A stretch of 64,000 nt of DNA from Escherichia coli (GTDB taxonomy: Bacteria > Pseudomonadota > Gammaproteobacteria > Enterobacterales > Enterobacteriaceae): the NCBI RefSeq assembly GCF_048403405.1, contig NZ_CP183129.1. One strand, 5' to 3'. Within the stretch, counting starts at the first letter, position 1; the number at the start of each line of letters is the position of its first letter. This document shows positions 19,579 through 64,000 of this stretch, piece by piece. A program made the translations under genes and the position numbers. Under the pieces are notes generated by a model that ran no database searches, had not been told where the DNA came from, and saw only the letters and a program-made list of their open reading frames with translations.

Positions 19579-20874
19579 TTAATTTTTCATTGCTTCGTTA
19601 TGGGGCATGGTTGGGGCAAACTCGCTTAACTGTGTATTTAACAAAGCTACCTGTGCATTATTGTTTTCAGACATCCATTTTCCGTATACCTGAAATACCA
19701 TTTGCGCATCTGCATGGCCCATCTGGTTTGCTATAAATGCCGGGTTAGCACCAGCTGTCAGCGACCAGCAGGCATAAGTATGTCTCGACTGATATGATTT
19801 TCGATGGCGGAGTCCGGCACGTTTTATCGCTGCGTCCCACATCTGCCTTATTGAGTCAACGGTAAAATGGTCACCATAATTTTTTACTCTCGCTGACACT
19901 TCAGGTTGAAAAACAAAGGTGCATTTTTGTTTTTCTGTTCTGCCATACTCTCTGAGGTGAACATCAATGATATGCTCTTTGCTCAGTCTCGTTAATGTCA
20001 TCTGACTCCGGAGAGCGTCGATTGCTGGCTTAATAAGATGAATGACCCGATTGGTTCCCGCCTGTGTTTTTGGTACCGTGAAACGGTCTTTTGCTAAATT
20101 TCTCCTGATCATCATTGTTCCATTTTTCAGATCTATGTCCTCCCATCCAAGTGCACACAGCTCACCAGGGCGAACGCCAGTATAAACAGAAACACACCAT
20201 AAATTTTTGGCTTGCTGATTTCTGCACGCATCGATAAGACGGATGAATTCCTCCCGCGAAAGAGGATCCGGAATGGTTCTTGATTCCTTTAATGGCGAGA
20301 TCCCCTTAAACGGATTATCTGCCAGGTAACCGTTATCAACACCAAACTGGAACACGGCGTTAAGATTTGTCATGTAATTATTTACAGTTACAGCCGATCT
20401 CCCTGGTTGTGTAACAATATAGTTACTTTTGGGGATCTGGTATCCAGTCAGTAGCTCTTTACGAACCTCCAGTAATTTTTCTTTATTAATCGATGAGGCA
20501 AGATTTTTTTCACCGATTATGCTCAGGATATTTTTGATGACGGCACGGTATGTGTTGAGTGATGTTTTGGCGACTTCAGTTTCTTTCAGTGCCAGAAATT
20601 TTTCAGCCAGTTCTTTTATGGTTAAATCTTGTCGGGCCTCACCAAATTTTTCCAGATTGCGTGAGGAGGGAAACTGTTTTGCATAGTCGAAAACACCAGT
20701 TTTTATTGCGTAACAAACAGAGGAGCGTAGTTCACCTGCAACGCGCCTGTTTTTTGCTGTGTCAGGAACCCCCAGATTTTCCCTGACTCTTACGCCTTTA
20801 TAAACAAACCAGATACGTAATTTCCCTCCATGGTTTTCCACGCCTGTCGGATATTTCATTTCAACTTCTCTCAT
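19579..20874 (-). CDS. phage integrase (tyrosine recombinase)
   Basis: 431 aa; C-terminal catalytic region with RHTYACWSLTAGANPAFIANQMGHADAQMVFQVYGKW (R..H..Y signature). Confidence 0.88.
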   Translation of the reverse strand: MREVEMKYPTGVENHGGKLRIWFVYKGVRVRENLGVPDTAKNRRVAGELRSSVCYAIKTGVFDYAKQFPSSRNLEKFGEARQDLTIKELAEKFLALKETEVAKTSLNTYRAVIKNILSIIGEKNLASSINKEKLLEVRKELLTGYQIPKSNYIVTQPGRSAVTVNNYMTNLNAVFQFGVDNGYLADNPFKGISPLKESRTIPDPLSREEFIRLIDACRNQQAKNLWCVSVYTGVRPGELCALGWEDIDLKNGTMMIRRNLAKDRFTVPKTQAGTNRVIHLIKPAIDALRSQMTLTRLSKEHIIDVHLREYGRTEKQKCTFVFQPEVSARVKNYGDHFTVDSIRQMWDAAIKRAGLRHRKSYQSRHTYACWSLTAGANPAFIANQMGHADAQMVFQVYGKWMSENNNAQVALLNTQLSEFAPTMPHNEAMKN

Positions 20875-20893: not shown

Positions 20894-21145
20894 TCAAGTA
20901 AGATGACGTCTTGGTCTCGCTGATGCCTGGCGCTCAATCCAGCGATCAATTTCTTCCAGGTTGTAAAAGCATGGACTGTTATCCCATGGCATACCGTCAT
21001 GAGCGACATGCTTATATTCCCTTCCTTCCATAAACGATTTTTCCCGGGCCTTTTTTAACGTACCTTTTTTTATTCCTTTCAGCGCAATTAACTGCTCTTC
21101 GGATACCCATTTGCCGGGAGAGACAATCATGATTACTTCGCTCAT
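20894..21145 (-). CDS. excisionase-like small DNA-binding protein
   Basis: 83-aa ORF immediately upstream of the integrase on the same strand; basic HTH-like core. Confidence 0.55.
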   Translation of the reverse strand: MSEVIMIVSPGKWVSEEQLIALKGIKKGTLKKAREKSFMEGREYKHVAHDGMPWDNSPCFYNLEEIDRWIERQASARPRRHLT

Positions 21146-21217: not shown

Positions 21218-23689
21218 TTAAGAATCAGCCTGACTCGGGATCAGTTTTTGCCAGATAACTGAAACGTATTTTGCCTGGTAACGGGCGTCATCAAGTGCAT
21301 TATGGCGCTCACCTTCGAATGGAATAGCCGTTCTGGCATCGAAGTCTATGGCTTTCCCCAGCTCAACGATTGTGCGTACATCGCGATCGTTGTAGTAACG
21401 CCACGGGCAGGGGATCCCCTGCCGTTCGTATGAACGGCGCAAAATCGTGTTGTCGAAGTTGGCTCCATTTCCCCAAACCTGAACAAAAAATTCACCGGAG
21501 TTTTCGTCGATAAATTCCCGCAATTGTAACAGTGCATCATCTAACGGGATTTCATCGGTCATAATGGCAGATTGCGCTTCGCGTGATTGCTTAAGCCACC
21601 ATTTAATGGTGTCCCGATCAATGACTCCGCCAGCAGTTTCCAGATCGATAGTCTTACTAAATTCCGGTCCCATATCTCCGGTTTGCGGATCGAAAAATAT
21701 TGCACCTATTGAGATGATCGGGGCATCAGGATTTTTTCCCATGGTTTCAAGGTCGATCATTAGATGGTCACACGTCCTGCTGGTGGATGTGATTTCGTGA
21801 TGACCGTTCACCTTAATTGGGTGATCTGCCGTCTCGCCAGTTTCATTATCGCTATTGTGATGCTGATTGCCGCCAGTGTTCTCCTTGTGTGGATGTTCAG
21901 CGCCTTCCATTTCCTCCGGATCATCTTCCTGAACTTCAACCTGATACTCTTCATCGAATGTTTCTTGGTATGTTGCGTCGCCCATCACCGCGCCACAATC
22001 AGGGCAGTTGCCGCCGCCGGTCTGACCGCAGGCGGTGCAGGCTTTTTCCACTTCCTGTTGCGCCACTGGTTCAGGCTGTTTCGTTTCTGGCTCGTTTTGT
22101 AACGCATTTGGACTGTTTTGTTCCGCTTTTTGGTAGTTCCGTTCCGATTCATGCTGGTTCTGGTTCACAGAATCGCGGGTCTGGATCCCCTTAACCCATT
22201 TCGGATCATTCGGGTCACTAATCCCTTCAACAAATTCACCACGTGATGCAGCAAGCAACTTATCGGCGTCAGGCTGGCTGATATTGGCTGCCTGCATAAT
22301 TTTGTTTACTTCGTCAGCGGTAACTTTTATCGGCTCTGGTTGTTCTGAATCTTCAGCGGTATCTACATTTTGCGGTAAGCCCGTGTATGTGCCATTTTTT
22401 CGGGCAAAATATTCTTCTTTTGTGATTTCAGTGGCGCCAGCAGCCAGTGCCTTATCCAGACCAGAAAGTTTGTTTGCGCGACCGTATTTTTCTCCGTCCT
22501 TATCTGCGAAGAGGAAATAGAACGGCCCCTCACGCTCTACAGATGGTTCAGTTTCCGGCGCGGTTTCATTTTTTGGGATATCAGATACCTCAGTTTCCAC
22601 TGCATCAGTTTGTGTTTCTGATGACTGGAGAACAGCAACAGTGCCCAGGTCTGTTTCTTCATTCTCAAACACGCCCTTTGTCGTCAGGTATTCGCAGATA
22701 TATTTGTTCAGTGCTACGGGATCTTTGTGAATGTCGATCGGACGCTCACGGACAAGGCCAAAAATAGTTTGGCGGTCGTAGCGAAGGGCATCAGGCTGTT
22801 TGCGTATTGATGCCGAGATACGCTTCCAGTCTTCGCGGTCGTTGTCGATAACTTCTTTTTTTGCCCAGCGATGGATGCTGCCGTCAATGTTTCCGGCATC
22901 CACATCACCAGGCCAGAGAGCGTAGGCCAGTTCGTCATCCAGTGTTTTCCATGTCTGCTTGTATTCGCGATGAATGGCAGCAATGACCGAGCTGATTTTT
23001 CCTGTTGAATTTTCAGTGTACTGTTGATTGGCTCTGGCGCGGGCGAGATCAACAACAGACGTGTATTTTCCGGTTTCCTTGCGTTCACCTTCGCGACGTT
23101 TTTTCCAGATGCGCATCTCTGCCTGAATTTCGGGCCATTTAGCACCAGGAATACATTTATGCTTAACCCACCCAATGGCGTGCAACTTAAGCTCCGGATA
23201 CATGGCGTTAACTTCTGGCATTTTCATCAACGCTTCAACGATATGTCCGTCGAATGTTGCCATGTCTTCCTGCAACAATTCCTGTGCGCTAATAACCATA
23301 TCAACGGTGATGTTTTCACATGTGTCGAACTTAACCATGACAGCGTTCTGTACTTCAGGGGCCAGCTTGTCAAAAGTGACGTTCATCGGATCGGATTCAG
23401 TCTCAACCGGGACAAAAGAAGCAGACTCCTCATCCCAGCGGTTTTCCTGCATATATTCAGCATCCCATGAATCGAGGGCAGGGCGGGGTATGCCAGGTTT
23501 ATCCTCGCAGACAATAAATTTATAAGCGCAGTCCTGAGCAGCCGGATAATGTTCCAGGAATTGCCAGTGAAATTTTGCTCGAGCACGGCGTTCGTCGCCA
23601 GCTTCAATGGCTGTGGCTACAGCCACAGCGCCTTCTTCCCTTGTTGCCAGTTCGTCAGGAATAGCGGCGCAAATAAAGACTTTACTCAT
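21218..23689 (-). CDS. large early protein with C-terminal DnaQ-like DEDDh 3'-5' exonuclease domain (full-length counterpart of the truncated K-12 ydfE)
   Basis: 823 aa; C-terminal motifs MIDLETMG (Exo I), WGNGANFDNTIL (Exo II), HNALDDARYQAKYV (Exo III); central acidic low-complexity region and a CxxC...CxxC zinc ribbon (ACTACGQTGGGNCPDCG). Confidence 0.7.
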   Translation of the reverse strand: MSKVFICAAIPDELATREEGAVAVATAIEAGDERRARAKFHWQFLEHYPAAQDCAYKFIVCEDKPGIPRPALDSWDAEYMQENRWDEESASFVPVETESDPMNVTFDKLAPEVQNAVMVKFDTCENITVDMVISAQELLQEDMATFDGHIVEALMKMPEVNAMYPELKLHAIGWVKHKCIPGAKWPEIQAEMRIWKKRREGERKETGKYTSVVDLARARANQQYTENSTGKISSVIAAIHREYKQTWKTLDDELAYALWPGDVDAGNIDGSIHRWAKKEVIDNDREDWKRISASIRKQPDALRYDRQTIFGLVRERPIDIHKDPVALNKYICEYLTTKGVFENEETDLGTVAVLQSSETQTDAVETEVSDIPKNETAPETEPSVEREGPFYFLFADKDGEKYGRANKLSGLDKALAAGATEITKEEYFARKNGTYTGLPQNVDTAEDSEQPEPIKVTADEVNKIMQAANISQPDADKLLAASRGEFVEGISDPNDPKWVKGIQTRDSVNQNQHESERNYQKAEQNSPNALQNEPETKQPEPVAQQEVEKACTACGQTGGGNCPDCGAVMGDATYQETFDEEYQVEVQEDDPEEMEGAEHPHKENTGGNQHHNSDNETGETADHPIKVNGHHEITSTSRTCDHLMIDLETMGKNPDAPIISIGAIFFDPQTGDMGPEFSKTIDLETAGGVIDRDTIKWWLKQSREAQSAIMTDEIPLDDALLQLREFIDENSGEFFVQVWGNGANFDNTILRRSYERQGIPCPWRYYNDRDVRTIVELGKAIDFDARTAIPFEGERHNALDDARYQAKYVSVIWQKLIPSQADS

Positions 23690-23782
23690 TTTGTTTTAAC
23701 CTCATGACAGATTTAAGGATGAACAAATCCCTGCCATTGCTGGAATATAAGAATGAAACCGGATATTTATTACGGAACTGTT

Positions 23783-23974
23783 TTAAAGACCTGCCGGGAT
23801 TTCGATATTATCCTGGTGAATAACTTTATCGACCGGGTAACAGTTACCGGGAATTTTCTGTTCGGTTGCTGCAGTCATACACTCCTGCATTGTCCTGTGA
23901 ACACTGACTGCAATATCAACTGGCACTCCGGAAACAAGAAAAACTGTCAGAACAAGCGCAAATGCTGAATTCAT
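23783..23974 (-). CDS. ydfD: small membrane-targeted lysis/toxic protein
   Basis: 63 aa from MNSAFALVLTVFLVSGVPVDIAVSVH..., N-terminal hydrophobic segment; directly downstream of dicB. Confidence 0.7.
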   Translation of the reverse strand: MNSAFALVLTVFLVSGVPVDIAVSVHRTMQECMTAATEQKIPGNCYPVDKVIHQDNIEIPAGL

Positions 23975-24159
23975 TGTGCACATCCTTTTGGCATCAGACG
24001 TAAACGAGCCAGCATTGAAACAATGCATATTTTATTTAATAGCTCCCGTTCTTGTTTTCTCTTGTTAATGGCATCTTCAGTAAATACAGGGTTACTGATA
24101 GTGACACCAATTTCAAAACAACCTTCAGACGTATTAACGTTTGGTAATAACGTTTTCAT
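23971..24159 (-). CDS. dicB: cell-division inhibitor DicB (MinC-dependent FtsZ-ring inhibitor)
   Basis: 62 aa, MKTLLPNVNTSEGCFEIGVTISNPVFTEDAINKRKQERELLNKICIVSMLARLRLMPKGCAQ; immediately downstream of dicF. Confidence 0.8.
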   Translation of the reverse strand: MKTLLPNVNTSEGCFEIGVTISNPVFTEDAINKRKQERELLNKICIVSMLARLRLMPKGCAQ

Positions 24160-24333
24160 TATCGCGTCCTCAACAATGAATTTTGTGATGCAGTGCCTGG
24201 TGCCTCCAGGTGACGTTAACCAGTTAACAATTAACGTCGGATACAGAGAATCCACCCATAACACTGTTTTTGGTTTTAACTGTTCCGCGTGCGCTTAGCC
24301 GCATTCACCGCATCACAAAATTCACTTTAAAAA

Positions 24334-24386
24334 CGGCGGCAGAGCAGTCACGGAGTAAAACTGATACCGCCAAACGTCACCAGAAA
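24334..24386 (-). ncRNA. dicF: DicF small regulatory RNA (antisense inhibitor of ftsZ mRNA)
   Basis: Minus strand reads ...UUUCUGGUGACGUUUGGCGGUAUCAGUUUUACUCCGUGACUGCUCUGCCGCCG followed by a U tract, matching my recollection of the 53-nt DicF sequence except at the last two bases. Confidence 0.8.
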
Positions 24387-24663
24387 ATTGATAACAGAGG
24401 GCGTTGCAGCGGGGTTGTCACTTAAGCGTATGGTCAACCTGACAACTCGGTGTCCTCAACGGGGAAGGAATAACCCCGCCATACTTACCGCCGCGCCATT
24501 TTGCGGGTTGCCACAACCGGAAGCGCACGGTCGAATTAAATTTAACGACACCGTACAGTGAGACGAACTTCGCCGTGCGCTTTCGTGTTGTGTGCCTGCT
24601 TTTAACCACGTCAGGCGAGGTGGTATCCTTAAAATCACCACAGTTTTAAGGATTCATTAAGCA

Positions 24664-24984
24664 ATGTCGCAACCACCAATAAATCCGCTTAAGAACATGA
24701 AAATTGATTACTGGTATAAAGCGCTTACAGTTGTTGGCGCTGCGTTGTTTGTCTTTAATGGAACGTCTTTTTTTGACAGATATCCCGTTGTTCCATTGGG
24801 TTTTTTGTCCTCCGGCATCTTTTTTATTGGTTTGGGGGAGTGGATTAATCACCCTCTCAAAGTGAGATTTATTGGTCCTGGAGTTTGGACTCGTGGATAT
24901 AATCGTTCTTCGTGCGCACTCGGTATCATCTTCGACATACTTGGTTGTTTCCTGATTGTTACAGGAGTCGTCAAGTTCTTCTGA
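24664..24984 (+). CDS. hypothetical small membrane protein (3 predicted TM helices)
   Basis: ATG preceded by AAGGA at -8; hydrophobic segments YKALTVVGAALFVF, GFLSSGIFFIGLGEWI, ALGIIFDILGCFLIVTGVV. Overlaps a long minus-strand ORF, so the assignment is ambiguous. Confidence 0.35.
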   Translation: MSQPPINPLKNMKIDYWYKALTVVGAALFVFNGTSFFDRYPVVPLGFLSSGIFFIGLGEWINHPLKVRFIGPGVWTRGYNRSSCALGIIFDILGCFLIVTGVVKFF

Positions 24985-24989
24985 TGTAA

Positions 24990-25221
24990 AACCGCAAATG
25001 GGGCACGTAACGGGAATTTTGAAAAGCGTTTCTCCGGGTTCCAGAACAAAATTTTCTGCGGTCTGATTTTGCTTCTCATATTTGTGCTCCGCGTCATTGT
25101 GAGAGCACATTCTTATTCTGAGTGCCTGTTTAAACTCACTGAAGCTGAGAGCTTCTTCGCCTTCGGCAAGGCCTTCGAAGTATTCTTCGTAAGCCTTTTC
25201 CATGATTGTGTCGAAATCCAT
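24990..25221 (-). CDS. hypothetical acidic early protein with CxxC motif (ydfB/ydfC position); 3' boundary uncertain
   Basis: N-terminal part of minus ORF 24646..25263: MDFDTIMEKAYEEYFEGLAEGEE...TCPICGF looks protein-like; the remainder of the ORF is antisense to the plus-strand membrane ORF and looks spurious. Confidence 0.3.
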
Positions 25222-25222
25222 A

Positions 25223-25378
25223 TCACTCACCTGAGTTTCTTTCCAGCCAGCGACGGGCACCATTTTCGGTTTTAAACGTTTTGCTTTTGGTATACGTCAT
25301 CGCGGTGAACGTGCCGTCCTGGTTGGGGAACACGCCACATACCAGAGATTCGCTGTTGCCAAGATCGATAGTATCCAT
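25223..25378 (-). CDS. hypothetical small early protein (ydfA-like, 51 aa)
   Basis: Internal Met of ORF 25223..25432: MDTIDLGNSESLVCGVFPNQDGTFTAMTYTKSKTFKTENGARRWLERNSGE; first gene downstream of dicA, as ydfA is in Qin. Confidence 0.4.
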   Translation of the reverse strand: MDTIDLGNSESLVCGVFPNQDGTFTAMTYTKSKTFKTENGARRWLERNSGE

Positions 25379-25491
25379 GCTGACCTCATTTCCCCTTAAC
25401 GCCGGGGTCGCGGAACTGTTTGCTGAGAACACCGTGCGGTGTCTTGATGGAAAGTAATTTAGAATAACCTAACATGAGAGGCAAGTGTTTT

Positions 25492-25511
25492 TTGTTAGAT
25501 TGATCTAACAA
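25492..25511. promoter_or_regulatory. candidate operator (OL-like) - near-perfect palindrome TTGTTAGATTGATCTAACAA
   Basis: 8-bp inverted arms TTGTTAGA/TCTAACAA just downstream of dicA; the TTAGA...TCTAA half-site recurs in the dicA-dicC intergenic region. Confidence 0.5.
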
Positions 25512-25546
25512 AAAGAGTGGGCGCAACTAATCACTTGAAAAGAATG

Positions 25547-25954
25547 TTATTTTATTGATTTATTTTTACGCGCTTTAAGCATTTCTTCGAAGAGTTTGTT
25601 GAAGTTTTCTACTCTTGCGCGCATTTCAGACAGCAAGGCTTCCTGCTCGGAAGATGGAAGAGCATCGAATAATTCGATCAATTCTTTGTGGTTGGGAGTT
25701 AGCTCTGTTTCCACATGAAGTTCTTGTGCAGGCACTGGTGCCTTGTCTTCGTCACCAAACATTAGCCATGTAGGTGAGCACTTCAGAGCATCCGCTAAAG
25801 CAAACAATCGTTTTCCGACTGGCTGGGTTTCGTCTCTTTCCCATTGTGAAATTGTGACGTGAGCAACTCCAGCGAGGCGCGCAGCTTCTCGTTGTGTTAA
25901 GCGTAATTCTTTTCGTCGCGCCAGAACTCGCTGGCCTAGGGTTCTTGTATCCAT
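25547..25954 (-). CDS. dicA: immunity repressor, HTH_XRE family (DicA-like)
   Basis: 135 aa; HTH LTQREAARLAGVAHVTISQWERDETQP; divergent from a Cro-like gene. Confidence 0.75.
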   Translation of the reverse strand: MDTRTLGQRVLARRKELRLTQREAARLAGVAHVTISQWERDETQPVGKRLFALADALKCSPTWLMFGDEDKAPVPAQELHVETELTPNHKELIELFDALPSSEQEALLSEMRARVENFNKLFEEMLKARKNKSIK

Positions 25955-25955
25955 A

Positions 25956-26025
25956 GTTAGGTAATTCTAATTTTTCTTGACTTAGGTATCCCGCGCACAA
26001 TAATGTTAGAAAAGTCTAACAAGAG
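25956..26025. promoter_or_regulatory. divergent promoter/operator region between dicA and dicC (OR-like)
   Basis: Inverted repeats TTAGGTAATTCTAA (25956-25969) and TGTTAGAAAAGTCTAACA (26004-26021) plus a TTGACT -35-like hexamer between the divergent repressor genes. Confidence 0.5.
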
Positions 26026-26034
26026 GGGGCTTTG

Positions 26035-26262
26035 ATGCTTAAAGTTGACGCAATTACTTTTTTTGGCAGCAAAACAAAGCTTGCCAATGCCGCAGGAGTG
26101 AGACTGGCAAGTGTTGCTGCTTGGGGGATACTGGTTCCTGAAGGTCGCGCGATGCGTCTACAGGAGGCATCTGGCGGGGAGCTTCAGTATGATCCCAAAG
26201 TTTATGACGAATATCGTAAGACGAAGCGGGCGGGGCGGTTGAACAATGAAAATCACTCCTGA
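26035..26262 (+). CDS. dicC: Cro-like small HTH regulator (DicC-like)
   Basis: About 76 aa, HTH KTKLANAAGVRLASVAAWG; good RBS (AGAGGGGGC) before the ATG. Confidence 0.7.
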   Translation: MLKVDAITFFGSKTKLANAAGVRLASVAAWGILVPEGRAMRLQEASGGELQYDPKVYDEYRKTKRAGRLNNENHS

Positions 26263-26767
26263 ACAGGCTCGTGAGGCTCTGGATGCCTGGATATGTCGAC
26301 CAGGAATGACACAGGAGCAGGCGACGATATTAATCACTGAAGCATTCTGGGCTTTGAAAGAGCGCCCGAACATCGATGTTCAGCGTGTCACATATGAAGG
26401 TGGCGCGGTTGATCAGCGAGCGCTTAGCGTTAATCGAGTGAAGATATTCGAACGCTGGAAGGCTATCGACACCAGGGATAAGCGTGAAAAGTTCACAGCG
26501 CTAGTGCCTGCAATTATGGAGGCTATCCGGATTAGTGATTTCAGGTTGTATCGTGAGATCAGTGATGGAAAAAGTATTACGTACATGATCGCCGGGTTAA
26601 ATAAAGAATATGGCGATGTGGTGGAATCCGGACTGCTTTTTGCAGATCCTGCCGTTGTAGATCGTGAAACTGACGAACTTATAGAAAAAGCAATTGCTTT
26701 CAAGCTTGCGTATCGACAGCAATACCAACAAAAAGCTGGATGGAATTATGAGTCTTCTTTTTGCTGA
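26246..26767 (+). CDS. hypothetical early protein (cII/YdaT-like position)
   Basis: 173-aa ORF between the cro-like and replication genes; no recognisable catalytic motif. Confidence 0.5.
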   Translation: MKITPEQAREALDAWICRPGMTQEQATILITEAFWALKERPNIDVQRVTYEGGAVDQRALSVNRVKIFERWKAIDTRDKREKFTALVPAIMEAIRISDFRLYREISDGKSITYMIAGLNKEYGDVVESGLLFADPAVVDRETDELIEKAIAFKLAYRQQYQQKAGWNYESSFC

Positions 26768-27753: not shown

Positions 27754-28155
27754 GTGGCAAAAGTTTTTACACAAGAAGAGCGGGAAAAAATTAAAGGGCA
27801 GGTTGTTGAACTCGTACGCCGGAGTGGGCGTGAGACGTTACGGCAACTGGAAGTCAAGACAGGTGCGACAAGATATCTGATGAGCGTTCTCGCAAGAGAG
27901 CTGGTTGCCAGCGGCGATGTATACAACTCTGGTTACGGGTTATTCCCGTCTGAACAGGCGCGTAAGGACTGGCAAAATGCCCGTAAAAAGCTCTCAAGGG
28001 CAAAGCTGAAGAAACCATCTGCGGTTGATCCGGACCTTATCTGGTCATTACCTGACGGAGAAATACGTCGCTACGACAGGCGTCAGAACATAATCTGCCG
28101 CGAGTGCCGGAAGAGTGAAGTTATGCAGCGCATACTGGCATTTTATCAGGGATAA
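27754..28155 (+). CDS. hypothetical protein
   Basis: 133-aa ORF with RBS; basic, contains CRECRK; immediately upstream of the AT-rich island. Confidence 0.45.
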   Translation: MAKVFTQEEREKIKGQVVELVRRSGRETLRQLEVKTGATRYLMSVLARELVASGDVYNSGYGLFPSEQARKDWQNARKKLSRAKLKKPSAVDPDLIWSLPDGEIRRYDRRQNIICRECRKSEVMQRILAFYQG

Positions 28156-28636
28156 TGTTAGGTATTTTAGACGTTACTAGATTAAAAAGCATTAGTTCAG
28201 GAGTGAATTGACATTCTCATTTTTCATGGCACAGGGTAGATCTGGCGTGGTTGTCCGCTTTGTGCCAACAGCGGACGTTACTAACGAAACTGTGAGTTAA
28301 AAACGGGAGCTGGTCACCTCCATCCCGCGAAATGGAATTCAAAAATGCCCTCATGTACGGTACTTCTAGTCTGATGTGAGCATTTTCGTGGATTTTTTCG
28401 AGCCACTCCAACGAATGATTACATTCAGTTTCGGGCACTAAAACGTCATAAATCCGCAAGTTGAGGAGTAGCGATCAGCCAATTGGTTAAAAAACAGCTT
28501 TAATTCCCTTTTTCAAGCAGGCTCCTTGTCGCACGTCTGGTGCATCCAATTCATTTCAGTTACCCTGATGCCATACTGGCACGGACTAGCTCTCTTAATT
28601 GGCGCTGGTTTGTTAACCTTGTCCGCTGTCGGGTCT

Positions 28637-28667
28637 TTGTAAGTTGTAATTCCTAAACTAGCATAAT
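28637..28667 (+). promoter_or_regulatory. candidate sigma70 promoter for the RelA/SpoT-domain gene
   Basis: TTGTAA (28637-28642), 19-bp spacer, CATAAT (28662-28667), about 20 bp upstream of the ATG at 28689. Confidence 0.35.
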
Positions 28668-28688
28668 TTTATTATAAGGCCTCTTACT

Positions 28689-29714
28689 ATGCACATTTTA
28701 TCTGTTTCAAAAAAGGAAGTTGGAAGAGCTGGGGATAGATTAGTTTCTCAGTTTGGTACAGGTGAAAAATATAAAGAGGAAGATGTACAAATTCTTCATG
28801 AGTGGAGGATGTTGCATTTATATCCTTTAAGTAAAATACAATTTTATATGGAAAGAGAGGCTATTTCCTTAAACAAAAATGCGTTACTATCCTCTAGAAT
28901 TAAGAGGATGCCTTCCATTGTTACTAAGCTTTCTAGATTTCCTGATATGAAGTTAAATAAGATGCAGGATCTTGGTGGGTGCCGGGCTATTTTAAATAAT
29001 CTGGATCAAGTGTATGATTTAGTTAATAAAATAAAATCATCTAAATTCTCACATGAACTAGTTAGAATGGATGATTACATGATAGACGTGAAAGATTCTG
29101 GTTATAGAAGCTTTCATATGGTCTATTCATTCCAAAATAAAAAATTTCCATCTTTAAATGGGTTGCGCATTGAAATGCAAATAAGAACAGCTATTCAACA
29201 TAGCTGGGCTACAGCAGTTGAAATGGTTGGTTTGTTTCGAAAGGAATCATTGAAATCTGGTTTTGGTGATGCAAGATGGCTTAGGTTTTTTGAATTGGTA
29301 TCAGAGCTTTTTTATAAACTTGAGTATGAAAAAGAACCATCTGGGAGTTATATAAAAATATCAGAAGAATTAAGTTATTTATCCGTCGAGTTGAATGTTT
29401 TCGATATATTAGCTGCTTACAATGCCGTAGTTAGCCATATTGAGGGTAGCAAAAAATATGATAAAGGACTTTGCATAATTGTTGTTGATACCATAAAGCG
29501 GAATATAAATATAAAGAGCTTCGAAAATCACAATCATGCGAAGGCGGCAGAAGCTTATGTCGAGTCTGAAAAATACTGCGCGGAAAATAAAGGCTGTGAA
29601 GTGGCTATGGTTTCTGTTAGTTCAATTAGTGAATTAAAAAATGCATATCCTGCTTACTTTTTAGATACGAAAACTTTTTTAAATTATCTCAGTAGGTATG
29701 TTTTTATAAAATAA
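28689..29714 (+). CDS. RelA/SpoT-domain nucleotidyltransferase (small-alarmone-synthetase / toxSAS-like) with uncharacterised C-terminal domain
   Basis: 341 aa. All synthetase-fold motifs present in order: RIKRMPSIVTK, DLGGCRAIL, YRSFHMVY, EMQIRTAIQHSWATAVE. C-terminal ~150 aa unrecognised. The gene lies in a conspicuously AT-rich island. Confidence 0.8.
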   Translation: MHILSVSKKEVGRAGDRLVSQFGTGEKYKEEDVQILHEWRMLHLYPLSKIQFYMEREAISLNKNALLSSRIKRMPSIVTKLSRFPDMKLNKMQDLGGCRAILNNLDQVYDLVNKIKSSKFSHELVRMDDYMIDVKDSGYRSFHMVYSFQNKKFPSLNGLRIEMQIRTAIQHSWATAVEMVGLFRKESLKSGFGDARWLRFFELVSELFYKLEYEKEPSGSYIKISEELSYLSVELNVFDILAAYNAVVSHIEGSKKYDKGLCIIVVDTIKRNINIKSFENHNHAKAAEAYVESEKYCAENKGCEVAMVSVSSISELKNAYPAYFLDTKTFLNYLSRYVFIK

Positions 29715-30448
29715 AAAATGTTATCTGGAGTGGTCTGAATTCTACTAACTTAGTTTTTTCAGACCGCTTCTGACCACAATGGCCTGTGAGGTTCTGCTGC
29801 TAGTCAACATAAAATAACAAAGCCGGCAGGTGGTGGTTGTTGTAAAGTTATTCAATGACATTCATGGAGGCTTAAGCGAATTATTTGTCCCTGGTCGGTA
29901 TGGTGGCAACAGCTTGTTGCGAGAATTTGGCTAATTTGGACTGACTTCCGCTCCTTGCTCAAAGCGGACTAGAAGGTTAGCTTGTGTCGGACTTTGCGTA
30001 TTAAAAGAAGTGCTGGTGGTGACTAGTGGTTGAGCCCCATTTCCACAGAAAAAATCAGAGAAACTATACCCAATAGTTGTATTGAATCACTGACGAGACA
30101 GCCTCATATTCATCAGGACTGGTGTACGTCCAATACAGGAGGTTGTGGTGCTGGTTCTCAAATGTGCGCTGGCTATTACGGCTGTAATGGCGATTTATTG
30201 TCTTGCTATTGTTCTTATGGATCGCCTTTCTGACTGATTTCATATTGGCGAGGTAAAGGTAGTTAAGTAGAATGGCTGCGGGTGCTTGAGGCTATCTGCC
30301 TCGGGCATGAACACCAAAGGCAGATAGAGAAAAGCCCCAGTTAACATTACGCGTCCTGCAAGACGCTTAACATTAATCTGAGGCCAATTTCATGCTAGAC
30401 ACATGTAGGTTAGCCTCTTACGTGCCGGAAGGCAAGGAGAAGCAGGCT

Positions 30449-30604
30449 ATGAAGCAGCAAAAGGCGATGTTAATCGCCCTGATCGTCATCTGTTTAACCG
30501 TCATAGTGACGGCACTGGTAACGAGGAAAGACCTCTGCGAGGTACGAATCCGAACCGGCCAGACGGAGGTCGCTGTCTTCACAGCTTACGAACCTGAGGA
30601 GTAA
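30449..30604 (+). CDS. hokD: Hok/Gef-family membrane toxin (type I toxin)
   Basis: 51 aa, MKQQKAMLIALIVICLTVIVTALVTRKDLCEVRIRTGQTEVAVFTAYEPEE; embedded in a longer mok-like upstream ORF (30392..). Confidence 0.85.
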   Translation: MKQQKAMLIALIVICLTVIVTALVTRKDLCEVRIRTGQTEVAVFTAYEPEE

Positions 30605-30820: not shown

Positions 30821-31072
30821 ATGATGAACATCGAAGAACTGCGTAAAATTTTTTGTGAAGATGGCCTCTATGCTGTGTGCGTTGAAAATGGAAATCTTGT
30901 TAGTCATTACCGCATTATGTGTTTGCGAAAGAATGGGGCTGCGTTAATTAATTTTGTGGATGGTCGAGTGACAGACGGATTTATCTTGCGCGAAGGTGAG
31001 TTTGTCACTTCATTACAGGCACTGAAAGAGATCGGAATAAAAGCAGGCTTTTCAGCTTTTGCAGAAGAATAA
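30821..31072 (+). CDS. hypothetical 83-aa protein (position and length of Qin rem)
   Basis: 83-aa ORF with RBS; between hok and the DUF968 gene, as rem is in Qin. Confidence 0.5.
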   Translation: MMNIEELRKIFCEDGLYAVCVENGNLVSHYRIMCLRKNGAALINFVDGRVTDGFILREGEFVTSLQALKEIGIKAGFSAFAEE

Positions 31073-33234: not shown

Positions 33235-33341
33235 ATGATTTTTGCTGAAGATGGCGACATGATGTTTGCATTTTTCAAAAAACATGGATAAGATTTTCTC
33301 AACGATGGGCTTTGTGTATCCGACGTTTAGAAAAAAGTAGA

Positions 33342-33367
33342 AAACCCGCTTATAAGCGGGTTTTTGT
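33342..33367 (+). terminator. intrinsic terminator (tR'-like) about 110 bp downstream of Q
   Basis: AAACCCGCT-TATA-AGCGGGTTT hairpin plus T tract. Confidence 0.6.
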
Positions 33368-33404
33368 GCTTTAAATGGGGCAATAGAGATATTGAATCTC
33401 ATCC

Positions 33405-33589
33405 CGGGATAAACATTGGCAGTTGAAGGTCCACGCGAACCATTTATCCGGCAAAATTCCACGCGTAATCCTGTGGTAATTTCTTCTGCATCTCGAAGAT
33501 TGAGAGCTGAAACGTGAAGCTGGGCATCGATACGCCATCGGATGGGAATATAAGACCTTTGCTGCTTTTGTAGTCAAAGTTTTTGACAA
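33405..33589 (-). pseudogene. degraded cold-shock protein gene (cspF-like remnant)
   Basis: Minus-strand frame encodes ...[42 protein letters not shown] (Csp C-terminal half) but the N-terminus is in another frame and no stop follows the expected end. Confidence 0.5.
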
Positions 33590-33909
33590 TTCCTGTCATT
33601 TTAGGGGACAGAAAAACTCCTTAATACTGATAACCTGGTGCACCATACACACGTTCCTGGAGAAAACTACTTTTTTGATAGGGTTGAAGGTGGCTGGATG
33701 TCTAAAATAAACATTGCTTCATATGTTCAACTATGAGTTAATGACTGCGTCGGTTTGAAGAACAGACGATATACGAAGTAGTTTACTAAAGCAGTTCTCA
33801 TTTCAGGTGTTATTCACTTATTCCTTCTTTGAGTCTCTCCAATTAAGTACGAAGTCGTTTCTGTTATGCAAACCATTTATGCCGAAAGGCTCAAGTTAAG
33901 GAATGTAGA

Positions 33910-34125
33910 ATGTCAAATAAAATGACTGGTTTAGTAAAATGGTTTAACGCTGATAAAGGTTTCGGCTTTATTTCTCCTGTTGATGGTAGTAAAGATGTGT
34001 TTGTGCATTTTTCTGCGATTCAGAATGATAATTATCGAACCTTATTTGAAGGTCAAAAGGTTACCTTCTCTATAGAGAGTGGTGCTAAAGGTCCTGCAGC
34101 AGCAAATGTCATCATTACTGATTAA
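33910..34125 (+). CDS. cspB: cold-shock protein (CspA family)
   Basis: 71 aa, [38 protein letters not shown]... with RNP1/RNP2 motifs; long 5' leader typical of csp genes. Confidence 0.8.
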
Positions 34126-34406
34126 AATTCATCGCTCGTCTGTATACGATAACGAAGAAGGCTGATGCCTGAGTAGAGATACGGACAGAGTAGTGAATAT
34201 TGGATCTCTTTAATAAAAAGTAAGGAGGTCCAATACATGAAACAATGGCCAGCATATTTGGCAAAATCTTAATCAGGAAAAGTATGCTAACCATTGTGGT
34301 GAAGTGCAGGTTTGCTGCATGAATAGTTTCACAGCAGAAGCTAACTGCTGGCATCGCAAAACAAAGTGCGTAAGTGGATGACTCCCACAAAAAGCACCAC
34401 AATCTC

Positions 34407-35098: not shown

Positions 35099-35650
35099 AT
35101 GACTCAAGACTATGAACTGGTTGTGAAAGGAGTCCGTAATTTTGAGAATAAAGTTACGGTAACTGTAGCCTTACGGGACAAAAAACACTTTGACGGTGAA
35201 ATTTTTGACCTGGACATCTCGCTGGACCGTGTTGAAGGTGCCGCGCTGGAGTTTTATGAGGCAGCAGCCAGAAGGAGCATCAGACAGGTCTTCCTGGATG
35301 TTGCTGCCGGGTTATGTGAAGGGGATGAGCAGTCGCCGGAAAAGCGCCCCATAATTTTAGAGGCGCAGAATGTGTGGATAACCTACAAAGGAAAGCTACC
35401 GGGAAGAATTACTGGTTCTCTGAAGACGCCACCGACGGCATTGCGGTCAGAAAAAGATGATATTGAATCGCCCATTGAAAAACTGGAGGGCAGCGTCGCT
35501 GATCTGAATAAAAAATTGTCGGTGCTGATTCCTTCTGAAGATGAAAAAAAACGCCGCGATGAGCAGTTTGCGGCGTTTTACGATTATTGCATTGAAGTTA
35601 CTCGCAGGAATTTTGTGAAGATTTTTGAGGAGGGTAAATCTCTTCAGTAA
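35099..35650 (+). CDS. hypothetical protein inserted between holin and endolysin
   Basis: 183-aa ORF with GAGGAG RBS directly after the holin stop; no recognisable motif. Confidence 0.55.
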   Translation: MTQDYELVVKGVRNFENKVTVTVALRDKKHFDGEIFDLDISLDRVEGAALEFYEAAARRSIRQVFLDVAAGLCEGDEQSPEKRPIILEAQNVWITYKGKLPGRITGSLKTPPTALRSEKDDIESPIEKLEGSVADLNKKLSVLIPSEDEKKRRDEQFAAFYDYCIEVTRRNFVKIFEEGKSLQ

Positions 35651-35858
35651 GCTTATTGGCGGACGCTGCAATTAATTCAGGAAGGTCCGCAAGGTCATCT
35701 GTCAGTGGATATGATGAAAAATCGGCGGCAGTTCTGTTAAGAAGCGCTTTAACTAATTCCTTTTCCTTCTCCGGCAACAAGTTGATTAGAGCTACGACTG
35801 CTTGCCTGAGTGCGATTAAATCAGCAAAAGTTTGTTTAGGTAGATTTGTGTAATCCAT
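35598..35858 (-). CDS. hypothetical protein, convergent to the lysis operon
   Basis: 86-aa ORF with GAGG RBS 8 nt upstream of its ATG; helical, acidic; overlaps the previous gene's 3' end by 53 nt. Confidence 0.45.
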   Translation of the reverse strand: MDYTNLPKQTFADLIALRQAVVALINLLPEKEKELVKALLNRTAADFSSYPLTDDLADLPELIAASANKLTEEIYPPQKSSQNSCE

Positions 35859-35971
35859 AGTCGCCTCTGTGTTTATCAGATTGACATCCTCCTCCCGCCA
35901 GTGCCCATCACTGGTGAGGTAAGATTTAACATATCCGGGGATTTGAAGCCGATAAATCCTGATAAATATCC

Positions 35972-36999
<1,028 letters not shown>

Positions 37000-37362
37000 A
37001 TTAATATTAAATCGGATTATTTTTAGCGCTGAATGTGAAATTTAAATAAAAAGGACTCTTCCATGAGTCAAAATCCTTGAAATCTTAAGGGTAAGATAAA
37101 AGGTCATTAGACAGAATGACACGTTTTATTAATAAATAAAGCTATTGTTTCATTCGTGTGTTTTTCTTTACAAAAGTAATCCTTGCTATGGTTGGTTAAT
37201 CATGCGTTAATGGTGTTCTGGTTTGTTACAAAATTATCTGAAGCAGTCATTGTTATAATTTTATTATTTGTACCTCTTGAGATTTCCTTGTTGGTTTTTC
37301 TCTCTGATATTTTTTTTCGGACCATTCTGCCCAAGGGCTAACTTCTTCAAAAGGTAATAATG

Positions 37363-37575
37363 ATGTCTAACAAAATGACTGGTTTAGTGAAATGGTTTAA
37401 CCCTGAAAAAGGTTTTGGTTTCATCACGCCGAAAGATGGTAGCAAAGATGTGTTTGTCCATTTCTCAGCTATTCAGAGCAACGATTTCAAAACGTTAACT
37501 GAGAATCAGGAAGTCGAATTTGGTATTGAGAACGGACCTAAAGGCCCCGCGGCTGTTCATGTTGTGGCACTTTGA
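37363..37575 (+). CDS. cold-shock protein (CspA family; cspI-like position after the lysis cassette)
   Basis: [45 protein letters not shown]... Confidence 0.8.
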
Positions 37576-37779
37576 GGTAGATAATATTACAAACCATATT
37601 CACTTTAGATGCCCGTGTTGCCATGGTTCTCAGTATAGAACATCATCTTTTGATGTTTCTGACAGGAATCCTTTCGGGGCAAAATGTATCTTTTGTAAAT
37701 CAATGATGATTACATTTGATAATATTTCACAATACTTAAATGTTAGCCGTCTATCGTTAGATTTAAGAAAGTGAAAATG

Positions 37780-54398: not shown

Positions 54399-57850
<3,452 letters not shown>

Positions 57851-57868
57851 ATTTTATAACCCATATAC

Positions 57869-57893
57869 GGGCGCCAGAAATGGCGCCTTTTTT
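57869..57893 (+). terminator. intrinsic terminator after J
   Basis: GGCGCC-AGAAAT-GGCGCC followed by TTTTTT. Confidence 0.75.
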
Positions 57894-57917
57894 ATTGCAG
57901 AAAAGCGAGAGGTAATT

Positions 57918-58517
57918 ATGCGTAAAGTTTGTGCAGCCATTTTGTCCGCAGCCATCTGTCTGTCCGTATCCGGTGCGCCTGCATGGGCATCTGAACATCA
58001 GTCCACGCTGAGCGCGGGGTATCTTCATGCCTCGACGAACGTTCCCGGCAGCGATGATCTTAACGGGATTAACGTGAAATACCGTTATGAGTTTACGGAC
58101 ACACTGGGGCTGGTGACGTCATTCAGCTATGCAGGAGACAAGAATCGCCAGCTTACCCGTTACAGCAATACCCGCTGGCATGAAGATTCCGTGCGTAACC
58201 GCTGGTTCAGCGTGATGGTGGGGCCGTCTGTGCGCGTGAATGAATGGTTCAGCGCGTATGCGATGGCGGGTATGGCTTACAGCCGTGTGTCGACCTTCTC
58301 CGGGGATTATCTCCGCGTAACTGACAACAAGGGGAAAACGCACGATGTGCTGACCGGAAGTGATGACGGTCGCCACAGCAACACGTCTCTGGCGTGGGGG
58401 GCTGGCGTGCAGTTTAACCCGACCGAATCCGTGGCCATTGACCTTGCTTATGAAGGTTCCGGCAGTGGTGACTGGCGCACTGACGGTTTCATCGTGGGTG
58501 TCGGTTATAAATTCTGA
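57918..58517 (+). CDS. lom: Ail/Lom-family outer-membrane protein
   Basis: Signal peptide [24 protein letters not shown]; beta-barrel repeats ending [10 protein letters not shown]. Confidence 0.88.
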
Positions 58518-58543
58518 TTAGCCAGGTAACACAGTGTTATGAC

Positions 58544-58571
58544 AGCCCGCCGGTTCAGGCGGGCTTTTTTG
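58544..58571 (+). terminator. intrinsic terminator after lom
   Basis: AGCCCGCC-GGTTC-AGGCGGGCT followed by TTTTTT. Confidence 0.75.
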
Positions 58572-58581
58572 TGGAGTGGAT

Positions 58582-60987: not shown

Positions 60988-61268
60988 TGAAAGATTTAAC
61001 ACTCAAATTTGCCGACAGGGCCGACTTTTCGGCCTTTATGGGAAGTATTGGCTATTATAATGACGAGTCGATGCAGGATGATATTCTGATTGATGTGATA
61101 GGTAACGTGTACAAAGAAACCGGAGAGCTGACTGAAGATGGCGAACCGGTATGTGTTAAGGAAGATGGATATTTTGTAAACGTGCGCATCATTAAGGATA
61201 CGCAAATATCGTCATTATTCGATGAATACGTGGTTGCTGTTGAGCATCAACTTCGTGGCTGGATGTGA
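60987..61268 (+). CDS. hypothetical protein (tail-fibre assembly chaperone position)
   Basis: 93-aa ORF overlapping the stf stop by 1 nt (TAATG); AT-rich. Confidence 0.45.
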   Translation: MKDLTLKFADRADFSAFMGSIGYYNDESMQDDILIDVIGNVYKETGELTEDGEPVCVKEDGYFVNVRIIKDTQISSLFDEYVVAVEHQLRGWM

Positions 61269-61277
61269 GGAAGAAAA

Positions 61278-62318
61278 ATGGCTACATCGACAGTAATTCC
61301 TGATGACATCAAAACGCTAAAATCCGACGTTAGCAAATTAAAAAACGATCAAGGAAGCTACGCAACAAAATTATATGTAGACAGCAAAGATGAAATCGTT
61401 GGTGACTGGTCTGCTTCATGGTATCAGCAGGTATTGCCAACTAGCGGAGCTATATTTGGGAGAAAACTCCGCTCAACTCACAGGACGGCAGGTGTTGAGG
61501 ATGCGTATTGCGAACTATACCTCAAAAAATGGATAGACAGTCCAGGTAACGCAATGGCGCGCCTTAACCTGAACGATAACGGGACAAACATTTGCTGGGA
61601 CTTTACCAACCTTTATGGCGGTACGATGATTTTTCCCGGTGACAGCGGATACCTCAAAATGGGTAACTGCCTTATGTCATACAGCAAGCGTGGAAGTAAC
61701 GCGCTTATTAAATTTGATTACACCGACACATTACAGATCAAATATGCCAATCATGGGTCAACCATGACATTAAACACACAGGGAACCGCTTATGCTGGTG
61801 TTACTGCTCAATTGTGGGGCAACTCCAGCCGTCCTGTTGTTTATGAAGTCGGTGTTGATGGTGGCGCTTATATGTTCTATGCGCAAAAAAATACCGATAA
61901 CACCTATATGTTAAGCGTTAATGGTGCATGTCATGCCACCGCATTTAACCAGCATTCCGACCGGGATCTGAAAGACAACATTCAGGTGATCGATAATGCA
62001 ACCGACCGCATCCGTAAAATGAACGGCTATACATACACGCTTAAAGAAAACGGTATGCCCTATGCTGGTGTCATTGCACAGGAAGCTCTGGAAGCAATCC
62101 CAGAAGTTGTAGGTTCCGCAATGAAATATCAGGACGGCGCAAGCGGATCGGAAGGTGAAGAAGGTGAACGTTATTACACAGTAGATTATTCTGGTGTTAC
62201 TGGCTTGCTTGTTCAGGTAGCCAGAGAGTCAGACGACAGAATAACAGCACTGGAAGAAGAAAACGCAGAATTAAGACAAAGATTATCTGCAATTGAGGCG
62301 GCGCTTGCGTCTAAATAA
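61278..62318 (+). CDS. second tail fibre / tail spike protein with C-terminal intramolecular chaperone (peptidase S74-like) domain
   Basis: 346 aa; C-terminus ...SDRDLKDNIQVIDNATDRIRKMNGYTYTLKEN...GVIAQEALEAIPEVV... plus a terminal coiled coil, typical of the auto-cleaving chaperone domain of phage fibres. Confidence 0.7.
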   Translation: MATSTVIPDDIKTLKSDVSKLKNDQGSYATKLYVDSKDEIVGDWSASWYQQVLPTSGAIFGRKLRSTHRTAGVEDAYCELYLKKWIDSPGNAMARLNLNDNGTNICWDFTNLYGGTMIFPGDSGYLKMGNCLMSYSKRGSNALIKFDYTDTLQIKYANHGSTMTLNTQGTAYAGVTAQLWGNSSRPVVYEVGVDGGAYMFYAQKNTDNTYMLSVNGACHATAFNQHSDRDLKDNIQVIDNATDRIRKMNGYTYTLKENGMPYAGVIAQEALEAIPEVVGSAMKYQDGASGSEGEEGERYYTVDYSGVTGLLVQVARESDDRITALEEENAELRQRLSAIEAALASK

Positions 62319-62324
62319 TATCAA

Positions 62325-62345
62325 GGGGCCGAGCGCCCCGTTTTA
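62325..62345 (+). terminator. intrinsic terminator after the second fibre gene
   Basis: GGGGCCGAGCGCCCCG followed by TTTTATT. Confidence 0.6.
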
Positions 62346-62354
62346 TTGGGTAGG

Positions 62355-62654
62355 ATGAAAATGGATATAACACCTTTCCTTCATGCGCTTTGTGCTGTGG
62401 CTGCGCAGCTACTGGTTGGTCTTTTTACCGGGAACTGGGCTTACGGGGCGATAGCCGGTTGTACGTTCTTCATTGCGCGTGAACACACCCAGGCGGAATA
62501 TCGCTGGATTGAAATGTTTGGGCATGGCAAGAGGATTAACATGCCGTGGTGGGGCGGTTTTGATCCGCGCGTGTGGGATGTGGCAAGCCTGATGGATTTT
62601 GCTGTGCCGGTGGTGGCGTGTCTGCTGGTCTGGCTGTTGGTTAATCGTGGGTGA
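62355..62654 (+). CDS. hypothetical small membrane protein
   Basis: About 100 aa with two hydrophobic helices (LHALCAVAAQLLVGLF, FAVPVVACLLVWLLV). Confidence 0.5.
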   Translation: MKMDITPFLHALCAVAAQLLVGLFTGNWAYGAIAGCTFFIAREHTQAEYRWIEMFGHGKRINMPWWGGFDPRVWDVASLMDFAVPVVACLLVWLLVNRG

Positions 62655-63472: not shown

Positions 63473-64000
63473 AGTGAGACTCTATACGAAATTGGTGTTC
63501 ATATCATAATGCATCTCAGAAAATAATTTTGATTATTTTTGTGCATGTTTGTATGTACACGTTCGAAAATAAACGAATGCGTATGCAACCCCGTAATTTT
63601 GGTGAGACCCAAAATCGATTTTGTGAAAAATGGCTTTAACTCGGTTTGTTTTTCGAGTTCCGGGCGGACTCAAGGAAGAAGAATAGTGTTGCGTGTTATT
63701 TTAACCAGATTTCAAGTTGTTTGGTCGTGGAAAAGTGGAGCAAAATGTTGTTAAAGTGGAAAAATGATAAAAAAGTAAGTTTATTATATTACATTTTACC
63801 ATTTAAATTTTGGTTGTCTTTAAGAACTGATATCGCTGTTTGTAATAATTCTTTGTTATCCAGCCATGACTTTTTCTTTATGTTTCCTTCAATGTAATCA
63901 AGCAATGTTCTGGTATTGATAGGTCTTCCCTGTTTTGCCACTTCCACGACAGCATCTCCCAGGATAATTCTGACTTCAGGAAGCTGCGCAGGGAACCACT

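Follow-up and report, generated by a model that had tools for sequence, protein, structure and literature searches.

The dicF-dicB-ydfD module in the early-left operon of a near-intact Qin-family prophage of Escherichia coli

The small RNA DicF, the cell-division inhibitor DicB and the lysis protein YdfD are encoded on the minus strand of an E. coli prophage, as a module of the pL-like early-left operon of a Qin-family lambdoid element. The element was analysed in a 64,000-nt stretch of contig NZ_CP183129.1, hereafter the window, as to what its parts are, whether they are intact, how they are ordered and oriented, and which operators and RNA folds they carry (Table 1). A reading made from the sequence only had placed the three elements at 23783..24390, which is accurate, and had proposed that in a working phage context their derepression could couple arrest of host division to induction. 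This idea is correct but is already in the literature. The best explanation, in which we have high confidence, is that the derepressed dicBF early-left operon, with its phage context kept, would give host filamentation in the early lytic programme; a coupling of division arrest to derepression is plausible in that it matches the published K-12 results.

Table 1. Features of the prophage discussed in the text (window coordinates).
Feature	Coordinates	Strand	Basis
Tyrosine integrase	19579..20874	-	phrog_1
Excisionase	20894..21145	-	phrog_539; 100% identical to HannyBb
Exonuclease, full-length 823 aa	21218..23689	-	phrog_2082, 1822 bits; 99.4% identical to HannyBb
ydfD, 63-aa lysis protein (DUF1482)	23783..23974	-	Pfam PF07358, phrog_1092
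dicB, 62-aa cell-division inhibitor	23971..24159	-	NCBIfam NF049927
Structured dicF-dicB spacer	24127..24336	-	MFE fold; about 99% identical to K-12
DicF small RNA	24329..24386 including terminator U-run; Rfam match 24334..24385	-	RF00039
86-nt hairpin, DicF precursor	24510..24595	-	MFE fold
Conserved 106-aa, 3-TM membrane-protein gene	24664..24984	+	Homologs of 34-58% identity and the same length; substitution pattern
ydfB remnant, first ~34 codons	25120..25221	-	K-12 alignment
ydfA (DUF1391), first gene of the operon	25223..25378	-	phrog_751; ~98% nucleotide identity to K-12 ydfA
dicBp-like putative promoter and two operator palindromes	25456..25511	-	Sequence reading; positional homology with K-12 dicBp
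Immunity repressor, DicA type, 135 aa	25547..25954	-	NCBIfam NF007257
Two further operator palindromes (repressor/cro divergent promoter region)	25957..26019		TTAG-N6-CTAA search
DicC (Cro-like) gene	26035..26262	+	NF007282, 165.7 bits; 86% identical to K-12 DicC
rem, homolog of the DicA antirepressor	30821..31072	+	96% identical to K-12 Rem
Tail-tip gene J, frameshifted	54456..57850	+	tblastn frame change; alignment with intact allele

All three elements of the module are present, on which the Rfam, NCBIfam and Pfam scores and the alignment to K-12 agree. The comparison with K-12 dicF and dicB that the sequence-only reading had proposed was run and identifies them as homologs; judged from this alignment, with its nucleotide identity of about 99%, the similarity is homology and not chance. 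In an Rfam scan of the whole window, DicF is matched over the entire model (RF00039, positions 1-52 of 52; 72.5 bits, gathering score 48; E = 4.8e-14), and 52 of its 53 bases equal those of K-12 DicF, the sole change being C to G at the unpaired last base ahead of the U-run. The terminator hairpin has the same fold as in K-12 (-16.6 against -15.9 kcal/mol) and is followed by UUUUU. By position, alignment and fold, DicF lies within the dicB operon, ahead of dicB, with its precursor hairpins conserved, and the bases that pair with ftsZ in K-12 are identical here. The energy of the duplex between DicF and the K-12 ftsZ leader (the window does not include the host ftsZ) was dropped as evidence: 53 of 500 shuffled DicF sequences were as good, so that the real RNA is not separable from them, and the case is thus carried by the identity of DicF in sequence to the RNA tested in K-12. 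The dicB product, MKTLLPNVNTSEGCFEIGVTISNPVFTEDAINKRKQERELLNKICIVSMLARLRLMPKGCAQ (62 aa, from the list of open reading frames), is matched by NF049927 over residues 1-62 of 62 (132.8 bits; cut-off 100). Its gene carries one synonymous difference from K-12, leaving the protein identical, and a Shine-Dalgarno sequence, GAGGA, 7 nt upstream. By this identity with the tested K-12 protein, DicB is predicted to inhibit the Z ring in a manner dependent on MinC and ZipA (PMC6832061). The ydfD product, MNSAFALVLTVFLVSGVPVDIAVSVHRTMQECMTAATEQKIPGNCYPVDKVIHQDNIEIPAGL (63 aa, from the same list), is matched by Pfam PF07358 (DUF1482) over model positions 1-57 of 57 (E = 2.5e-25) and by phrog_1092; its start overlaps the dicB stop as ATGA, as in K-12. 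It is 100% identical to the copy of the isolated phage HannyBb and agrees with K-12 YdfD at 61 of 63 residues. The two substitutions, V6A and E17V, fall in the N-terminal domain, which is reported to bind IspG (PMC8835842). Lysis through inhibition of IspG would be expected here by analogy with the K-12 data (PMC8835842).

The prophage that carries the module had been read as apparently complete, and most of this description holds. The host genes at its left, from mlc to rspA and rspB, also border Qin in K-12, thus it is a Qin-family element at the Qin site beside rspB. Its left junction, adjoining rspB, lies at about 19526, where collinearity with phage HannyBb (PP925841; 45,272 bp) begins. 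This collinearity extends to the end of the window, aside from mosaic swaps at 25462..26131 (immunity), 28151..30105, 33307..33410, 35298..35962, 57401..58565 and 59907..60907. When 46 HannyBb proteins were compared with the window by tblastn, the small and large terminase, portal, protease-capsid, tail genes, tape measure, holin, lysozyme, Rz, Q, integrase, excisionase and exonuclease were found at full length with 92-100% amino acid identity, the integrase and excisionase being intact and 99.8-100% identical. Two points qualify the claim of completeness. First, the right end with attR is beyond the window; by collinearity with HannyBb, it would lie about 800 bp past position 64000. Second, the virion and lysis gene set is not all intact: the tail-tip gene J is frameshifted, although none of the remaining genes in the comparison is broken. 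In tblastn the alignment of J changes frame at about 57465, and comparison with an intact allele shows a single-nucleotide deletion in a C5 run near 57470, which puts the last ~130 codons of J out of frame. The identical sequence in another genome is flagged 'frameshifted' by PGAP. The deletion lies in a homopolymer and could be a sequencing error. If it is real, particles would be without the receptor-binding end of J, so that induction may not give infectious particles. The prophage is therefore described as near-intact, and it is likely the ancestral form of the cryptic Qin of K-12.

In a survey of 5426 complete E. coli genomes, 3778 have the 608-bp module at a coverage of 80% or more, and 4651 have a match to any part of it, at a median of two and a maximum of nine places per genome; the left arm from rspB through int, xis and exonuclease reaches the same coverage in 2128. 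The module also occurs in isolated phages, including HannyBb (99.6% identity), mEp460_ev081 (LR597641) and Tritos (OV696610; both 97%) and PhiR42_1, among others, and DicF is annotated in the Tritos record. According to a 2023 J. Bacteriol. paper, mEp460_ev081 is a functional phage with dicB, dicF, dicAC and rem (PMC10448788). The wide spread and frequent multiple copies in the host genomes suggest retention of the module, and with the shared chromosomal site and the frameshift in J they bring up another reading. The prophage may be decaying and domesticated by the host like Qin in K-12, keeping the module mainly for host benefit, with DicB excluding phages that use ManYZ and DicF controlling metabolism and stationary-phase physiology. 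Expression would then be at a low level or in a subpopulation, and not part of a productive lytic cycle. In K-12, DicF in stationary phase and spontaneous switching in about 1% of cells, the latter dependent on DicC (PMC10448788), and phage exclusion (PMC6832061) are in line with such a role. However, apart from J and mosaic replacements, the phage genes compared with HannyBb are all intact, with the identities given above; near-identical modules are found in isolated phages, and the lone frameshift lies in a homopolymer and could be a sequencing error. Domestication is conceivable, and on balance somewhat improbable as the main explanation; it and a role in the phage programme are not mutually exclusive.

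On the minus strand, the elements follow one another as DicA-type repressor, operator-flanked promoter, ydfA, ydfB remnant, structured leader, DicF, dicB, ydfD, exonuclease, xis and int. Nucleotide identity to K-12 is about 98-99% from the transcript start through ydfA and again from the DicF precursor through ydfD. Between these parts, the K-12 homology ends in ydfB at about 25120 (PGAP labels the identical ydfB stretch 'ydfB, incomplete') and picks up again at about 24550-24590, just upstream of the 86-nt hairpin. A 190-nt DicF species, a product of RNase III, has been described for K-12 (PMC10448788). The 86-nt hairpin is a candidate RNase III site for this species, whose 5′ end, counted from the DicF terminator, would map at about 24520 in the 3′ arm of the hairpin. 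The 511-nt leader is far more structured than shuffled sequence (z = -6.4). In the dicF-dicB spacer, the MFE fold contains a long-range hairpin in which the region of the DicF U-tail pairs with the ribosome-binding site of dicB; a low-threshold Rfam search gives this hairpin a sub-threshold match to STnc100 (RF02076; 33.5 bits, E = 6e-5).

In this layout dicB, ydfD, xis and int are all located beyond the intrinsic terminator of DicF. No N-like antiterminator was recognised in the NCBIfam and PHROGs searches, and the low-threshold Rfam search of 23600..26300 gave no put- or nut-like element, returning only DicF and the sub-threshold STnc100. In K-12, the main transcript stops at DicF and a minor one after ydfD, and none longer was detected (PMC10448788). 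Induction could accordingly be imagined to give mostly DicF and little DicB or YdfD, with the lysis part effectively silenced by the joint action of the DicF terminator, the hairpin sequestering the ribosome-binding site and the inserted convergent gene. The stability of the terminator hairpin (-16.6 kcal/mol, with its U-run), the pairing with the dicB Shine-Dalgarno sequence, the K-12 transcript ends and the failure to recognise an N-like factor all fit such attenuation. Against it, the K-12 study describes that induction of the dicBF operon by Rem is followed by filamentation dependent on both DicF and DicB, so that read-through happens (PMC10448788). Moreover, xis and int are downstream on the same strand, and this layout is common to isolated phages. 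Attenuation to that degree is thus considered unlikely. The view that the likeness to K-12 is superficial, with the open reading frames and the RNA being chance matches or pseudogenes, is hardly credible and was rejected on the family scores, far over their thresholds in Rfam, NCBIfam and Pfam, and on the K-12 identity over DicF, dicB and ydfD.

The module is situated downstream of the immunity repressor and in the same orientation, as had been noticed from the sequence. The repressor is assigned to the DicA subfamily by NF007257 (224.7 bits; cut-off 101). Its amino acid identity is no more than 56% with K-12 DicA and 50-53% with the HannyBb repressor, thus it represents a different immunity allele. 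The three alleles share a central CSPTW-FGDEDK block and a C-terminal helix, which, speculatively, may be the contact with Rem. The putative operon promoter (TTGCCT, 17 nt, TAAATT; 25484..25456) is downstream of the repressor. It was missed by a scan for consensus promoters, with 8 of 12 positions matching, and was assigned by eye from the sequence and from the homologous position in K-12. Its -35 and -10 elements are bracketed by two palindromes, at 25459..25472 and 25492..25511, with the sequences TTGTTAGATCAATCTAACAA and TTAGGTTATTCTAA. The motif TTAG-N6-CTAA has 4 copies in the 64-kb window where 0.5 would be expected by chance; all 4 fall in the immunity region, and this number was not reached in any of 100 shuffles. 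A promoter-like site on the plus strand is found at 25977..26004, in the repressor/cro region. Beyond the repressor there are DicC and a cII-like gene, and after these a replication gene resembling O and a gene resembling Ren.

In K-12, DicA represses dicBp, and the repression is relieved 165-fold by Rem, which is encoded on Qin (PMC10448788). The repressor of the present prophage has a helix-turn-helix only; no S24 peptidase (autocleavage) domain was matched in it by the NCBIfam and PHROGs searches. Since a RecA-cleavable domain is lacking, derepression is probably via Rem and not by direct SOS cleavage. Control of a repressor 56% identical to DicA by this Rem is extrapolated from K-12 and would have to hold across the two alleles. 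SOS control of rem itself was considered and rejected: with the pattern CTGT-N8-ACAG and up to 1 mismatch, no LexA box was found near rem, and the count over the window was not above chance. The immunity system of Gifsy-type Salmonella prophages (GfoR/GfoA) likewise combines a short repressor of helix-turn-helix type, without a RecA cleavage site, with a small antirepressor whose gene lies elsewhere in the prophage. However, the Gifsy antirepressors are controlled by LexA.

The only mildly new item is the gene for a 106-aa membrane protein, and local novelty is limited to this ydfC position. The gene, 24664..24984 on the plus strand, occupies the place of the K-12 ydfB 3′ end and ydfC within a cassette of ~570 nt, so that it is inside the dicBF operon and convergent to it; its product has three hydrophobic segments. 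The cassette is present in 804 of the 5426 genomes, mostly at 99% identity or above, and is usually unannotated. A protein search gave 60 relatives of ~100-110 aa, with identity down to 34%, from Yersinia, Herminiimonas, Reinekea and metagenomes, among which the motifs DYWYKA and GLGEWxNHP are invariant. In comparison with homologs of 51-58% identity, nucleotide differences concentrate at codon position 3 of the plus strand. Synonymous and non-synonymous differences number 25-35 and 35-52 in the plus frame, against 6-8 and 64-69 in the in-phase antisense frame. This pattern fits the plus frame and thus indicates a plus-strand gene under selection. A 205-aa open reading frame on the minus strand (24646..25263; phrog_35040), which is called by phage annotators, was rejected for the part that overlaps the gene, where the same counts are 28/45 on the plus strand and 8/65 antisense; it is probably spurious there. 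Even so, the three distant homologs that were examined also keep the antisense frame open.

In each of six enterobacterial contigs, the homolog adjoins a prophage repressor, of the cI/S24 or the short DicA type, in opposite orientation and turned towards the early-left operon. The distant homologs in Herminiimonas, Reinekea and metagenomes have a context that is not obviously prophage and give no functional clue. The protein has no match in PADLOC, PHROGs or NCBIfam, and neither it nor its homologs have a recorded Pfam domain. We read it as a putative, unrecognised moron of the immunity region; that it is expressed in the lysogen and acts in superinfection exclusion or abortive infection is a suggestion that we regard as doubtful. 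If transcribed, the gene would produce RNA antisense to ydfB and ydfA, which could damp leaky expression of dicBF.

The closest known system is the dicBF operon of K-12 Qin (dicA/dicC, ydfABC, dicF, dicB, ydfD, ydfE), at the same rspB site and with the same order and orientation. Its ydfA, leader and spacer are about 98-99% identical to those described here, and its Rem 96%. The differences are as follows. The repressor and operators of K-12 Qin belong to another immunity allele (56% amino acid identity). Qin has the ydfB 3′ end and ydfC, whereas here ydfB is truncated and ydfC is replaced by the cassette. The exonuclease and integrase of Qin are IS2-disrupted pseudogenes, ydfE being a truncated remnant of the exonuclease, whereas both are full length here. 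The late and virion genes are also present, unlike in K-12 Qin. Phage HannyBb is 99.6% identical from int through ydfA, including the 106-aa cassette; it differs in its immunity allele, in an intact J with a different C-terminus, in the lack of lom, and in the cargo between ren and hok. Among more distant systems, Kil of lambda causes filamentation upon induction (PMC3961180). Kil (from pL) and KilR of Rac are likewise small inhibitors of the FtsZ ring, whose genes precede the recombination and xis/int genes in an early-left operon under repressor control. No relationship in sequence to the present module is expected. They are single peptides, whereas in the present operon there are a small RNA, a MinC-dependent protein and a lysis protein that targets IspG. 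The dicF-dicB-ydfD module is thus common and known, as are its control by DicA, DicC and Rem and its carriage by working phages.

DicF and DicB are essentially identical to the molecules tested in K-12, and the leader, the regulators and the operator layout are present, therefore the series of events seen in K-12 is the best-supported reading of this operon. Processing, targets, control by Rem, phenotype and expression are carried over from the K-12 experiments, and the following scheme would hold to the extent that they apply. In the lysogen, the DicA-type repressor would bind the paired palindromic operators bracketing the promoter and so shut off the leftward transcript that runs from ydfA through the ydfB remnant, leader, DicF, dicB, ydfD, exonuclease and xis to int. 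Derepression would most likely be brought about by the antirepressor Rem or by a DicA/DicC switch that occurs spontaneously. DicF would then be released by processing, which in K-12 involves RNases III and E (PMC10448788), and read-through past its terminator would give DicB and YdfD. K-12 DicB has been shown to work together with MinC, the targets being the Z ring and ManYZ, and its action on ManYZ excludes phages (PMC6832061). In the same way, DicB here would dismantle the Z ring with MinC and ZipA and would block ManYZ. YdfD of K-12 binds IspG and lyses dividing cells only, and co-expression of DicB prevents this lysis (PMC8835842). YdfD would accordingly be expected to inhibit IspG and to lyse only dividing cells, so that DicB would restrain it. 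The net outcome would be host filamentation in the early lytic programme, a role like that of Kil for lambda.

As a discovery this matters little: the dicBF operon, its control and its occurrence in working phages are in the literature, and most E. coli genomes carry the module. It is useful for annotation, where it marks the region as a near-intact prophage of the Qin family. Such a prophage would also be a convenient natural system for studying the contributions of DicF, DicB and YdfD to a productive phage cycle, the way in which dicB, ydfD, xis and int are expressed beyond the DicF terminator without a recognisable N protein, and the role of the unannotated membrane-protein gene in the operon.

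The immunity repressors of the DicA type are strongly diverged among the prophage of the window, K-12 Qin (the cryptic prophage at the same chromosomal site) and HannyBb (an isolated temperate phage collinear with the window prophage apart from mosaic swaps), with an identity of just 50-56%. By the same comparison, Rem, the homolog of the K-12 antirepressor of DicA, is conserved at 96-100%. All the compared repressors have in common the block CSPTW-FGDEDK at their centre and a helix at the C-terminus, and these two elements may form a shared antirepressor contact. The hok/sok-type type I toxin-antitoxin locus lies directly upstream of rem, and its mok/hok ORF is 97% identical to the 'MokW-like' gene of HannyBb.

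Features of the prophage (window coordinates)
Feature	Coordinates	Strand	Details
dicF-dicB spacer	24127..24336	-	sub-threshold STnc100 match; long hairpin
Unannotated gene, conserved 106-aa 3-TM membrane protein	24664..24984	+	motifs DYWYKA, GLGEWxNHP
Immunity repressor	25547..25954	-	
341-aa ORF	28689..29711	+	PADLOC PDC-S33, 395.7 bits; phrog_4773
hok/sok-type locus	30280..30601	+	Rfam sok, 117 bits
rem	30821..31069	+	
cspA-type thermoregulator 5' leader	33749..34141	+	158.8 bits
ydfR-like gene, 183 aa, between holin and lysozyme	35298..35962	+	phrog_2091
cspA-type thermoregulator 5' leader	37205..37621	+	112.8 bits
J, frameshifted	54456..57850 (deletion at about 57470)	+	one C missing from C5 run
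DNA invertase, Pin-like	62882..63472	-	100% identity with HannyBb copy

The dicBF operon (which includes ydfA, DicF, dicB and ydfD) carries within it, on the antisense strand, the gene of the 106-aa protein, which replaces ydfC at its K-12 position. Relatives in other enterobacterial prophages, found on six contigs, adjoin the immunity repressor in every case, and no known family was matched among Pfam records, PHROGs, NCBIfam and PADLOC. The antisense frame in phase with this gene is also open in all three distant homologs examined. The spacer between dicF and dicB gives a full-length but sub-threshold match (33.5 bits; gathering score 47) to STnc100, a Salmonella sRNA family, and in its predicted fold the dicB ribosome-binding site is sequestered within the long hairpin.

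HannyBb has no counterpart of the mosaic segment containing the 341-aa ORF. The ORF matches PDC-S33, a candidate defence system in PADLOC, and is probably anti-phage cargo carried by the prophage. Each cspA-type leader precedes a prophage cold-shock-protein gene, and these pairs stand on either side of the lysis cassette, as do cspB/cspF/cspI in K-12 Qin. The segment of the ydfR-like gene is a mosaic replacement, and the HannyBb allele is shorter (103 aa).

In the tail-tip gene J, the deletion shifts the frame of the final ~130 codons, which encode the receptor-binding end. PGAP labels an identical allele elsewhere 'frameshifted', and the frameshift could be either a true defect or a homopolymer sequencing error. 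Further downstream, the Pin-like invertase adjoins tail-fibre and tail-fibre-assembly genes (58576..62654), which suggests that an invertible segment for host range is present there.
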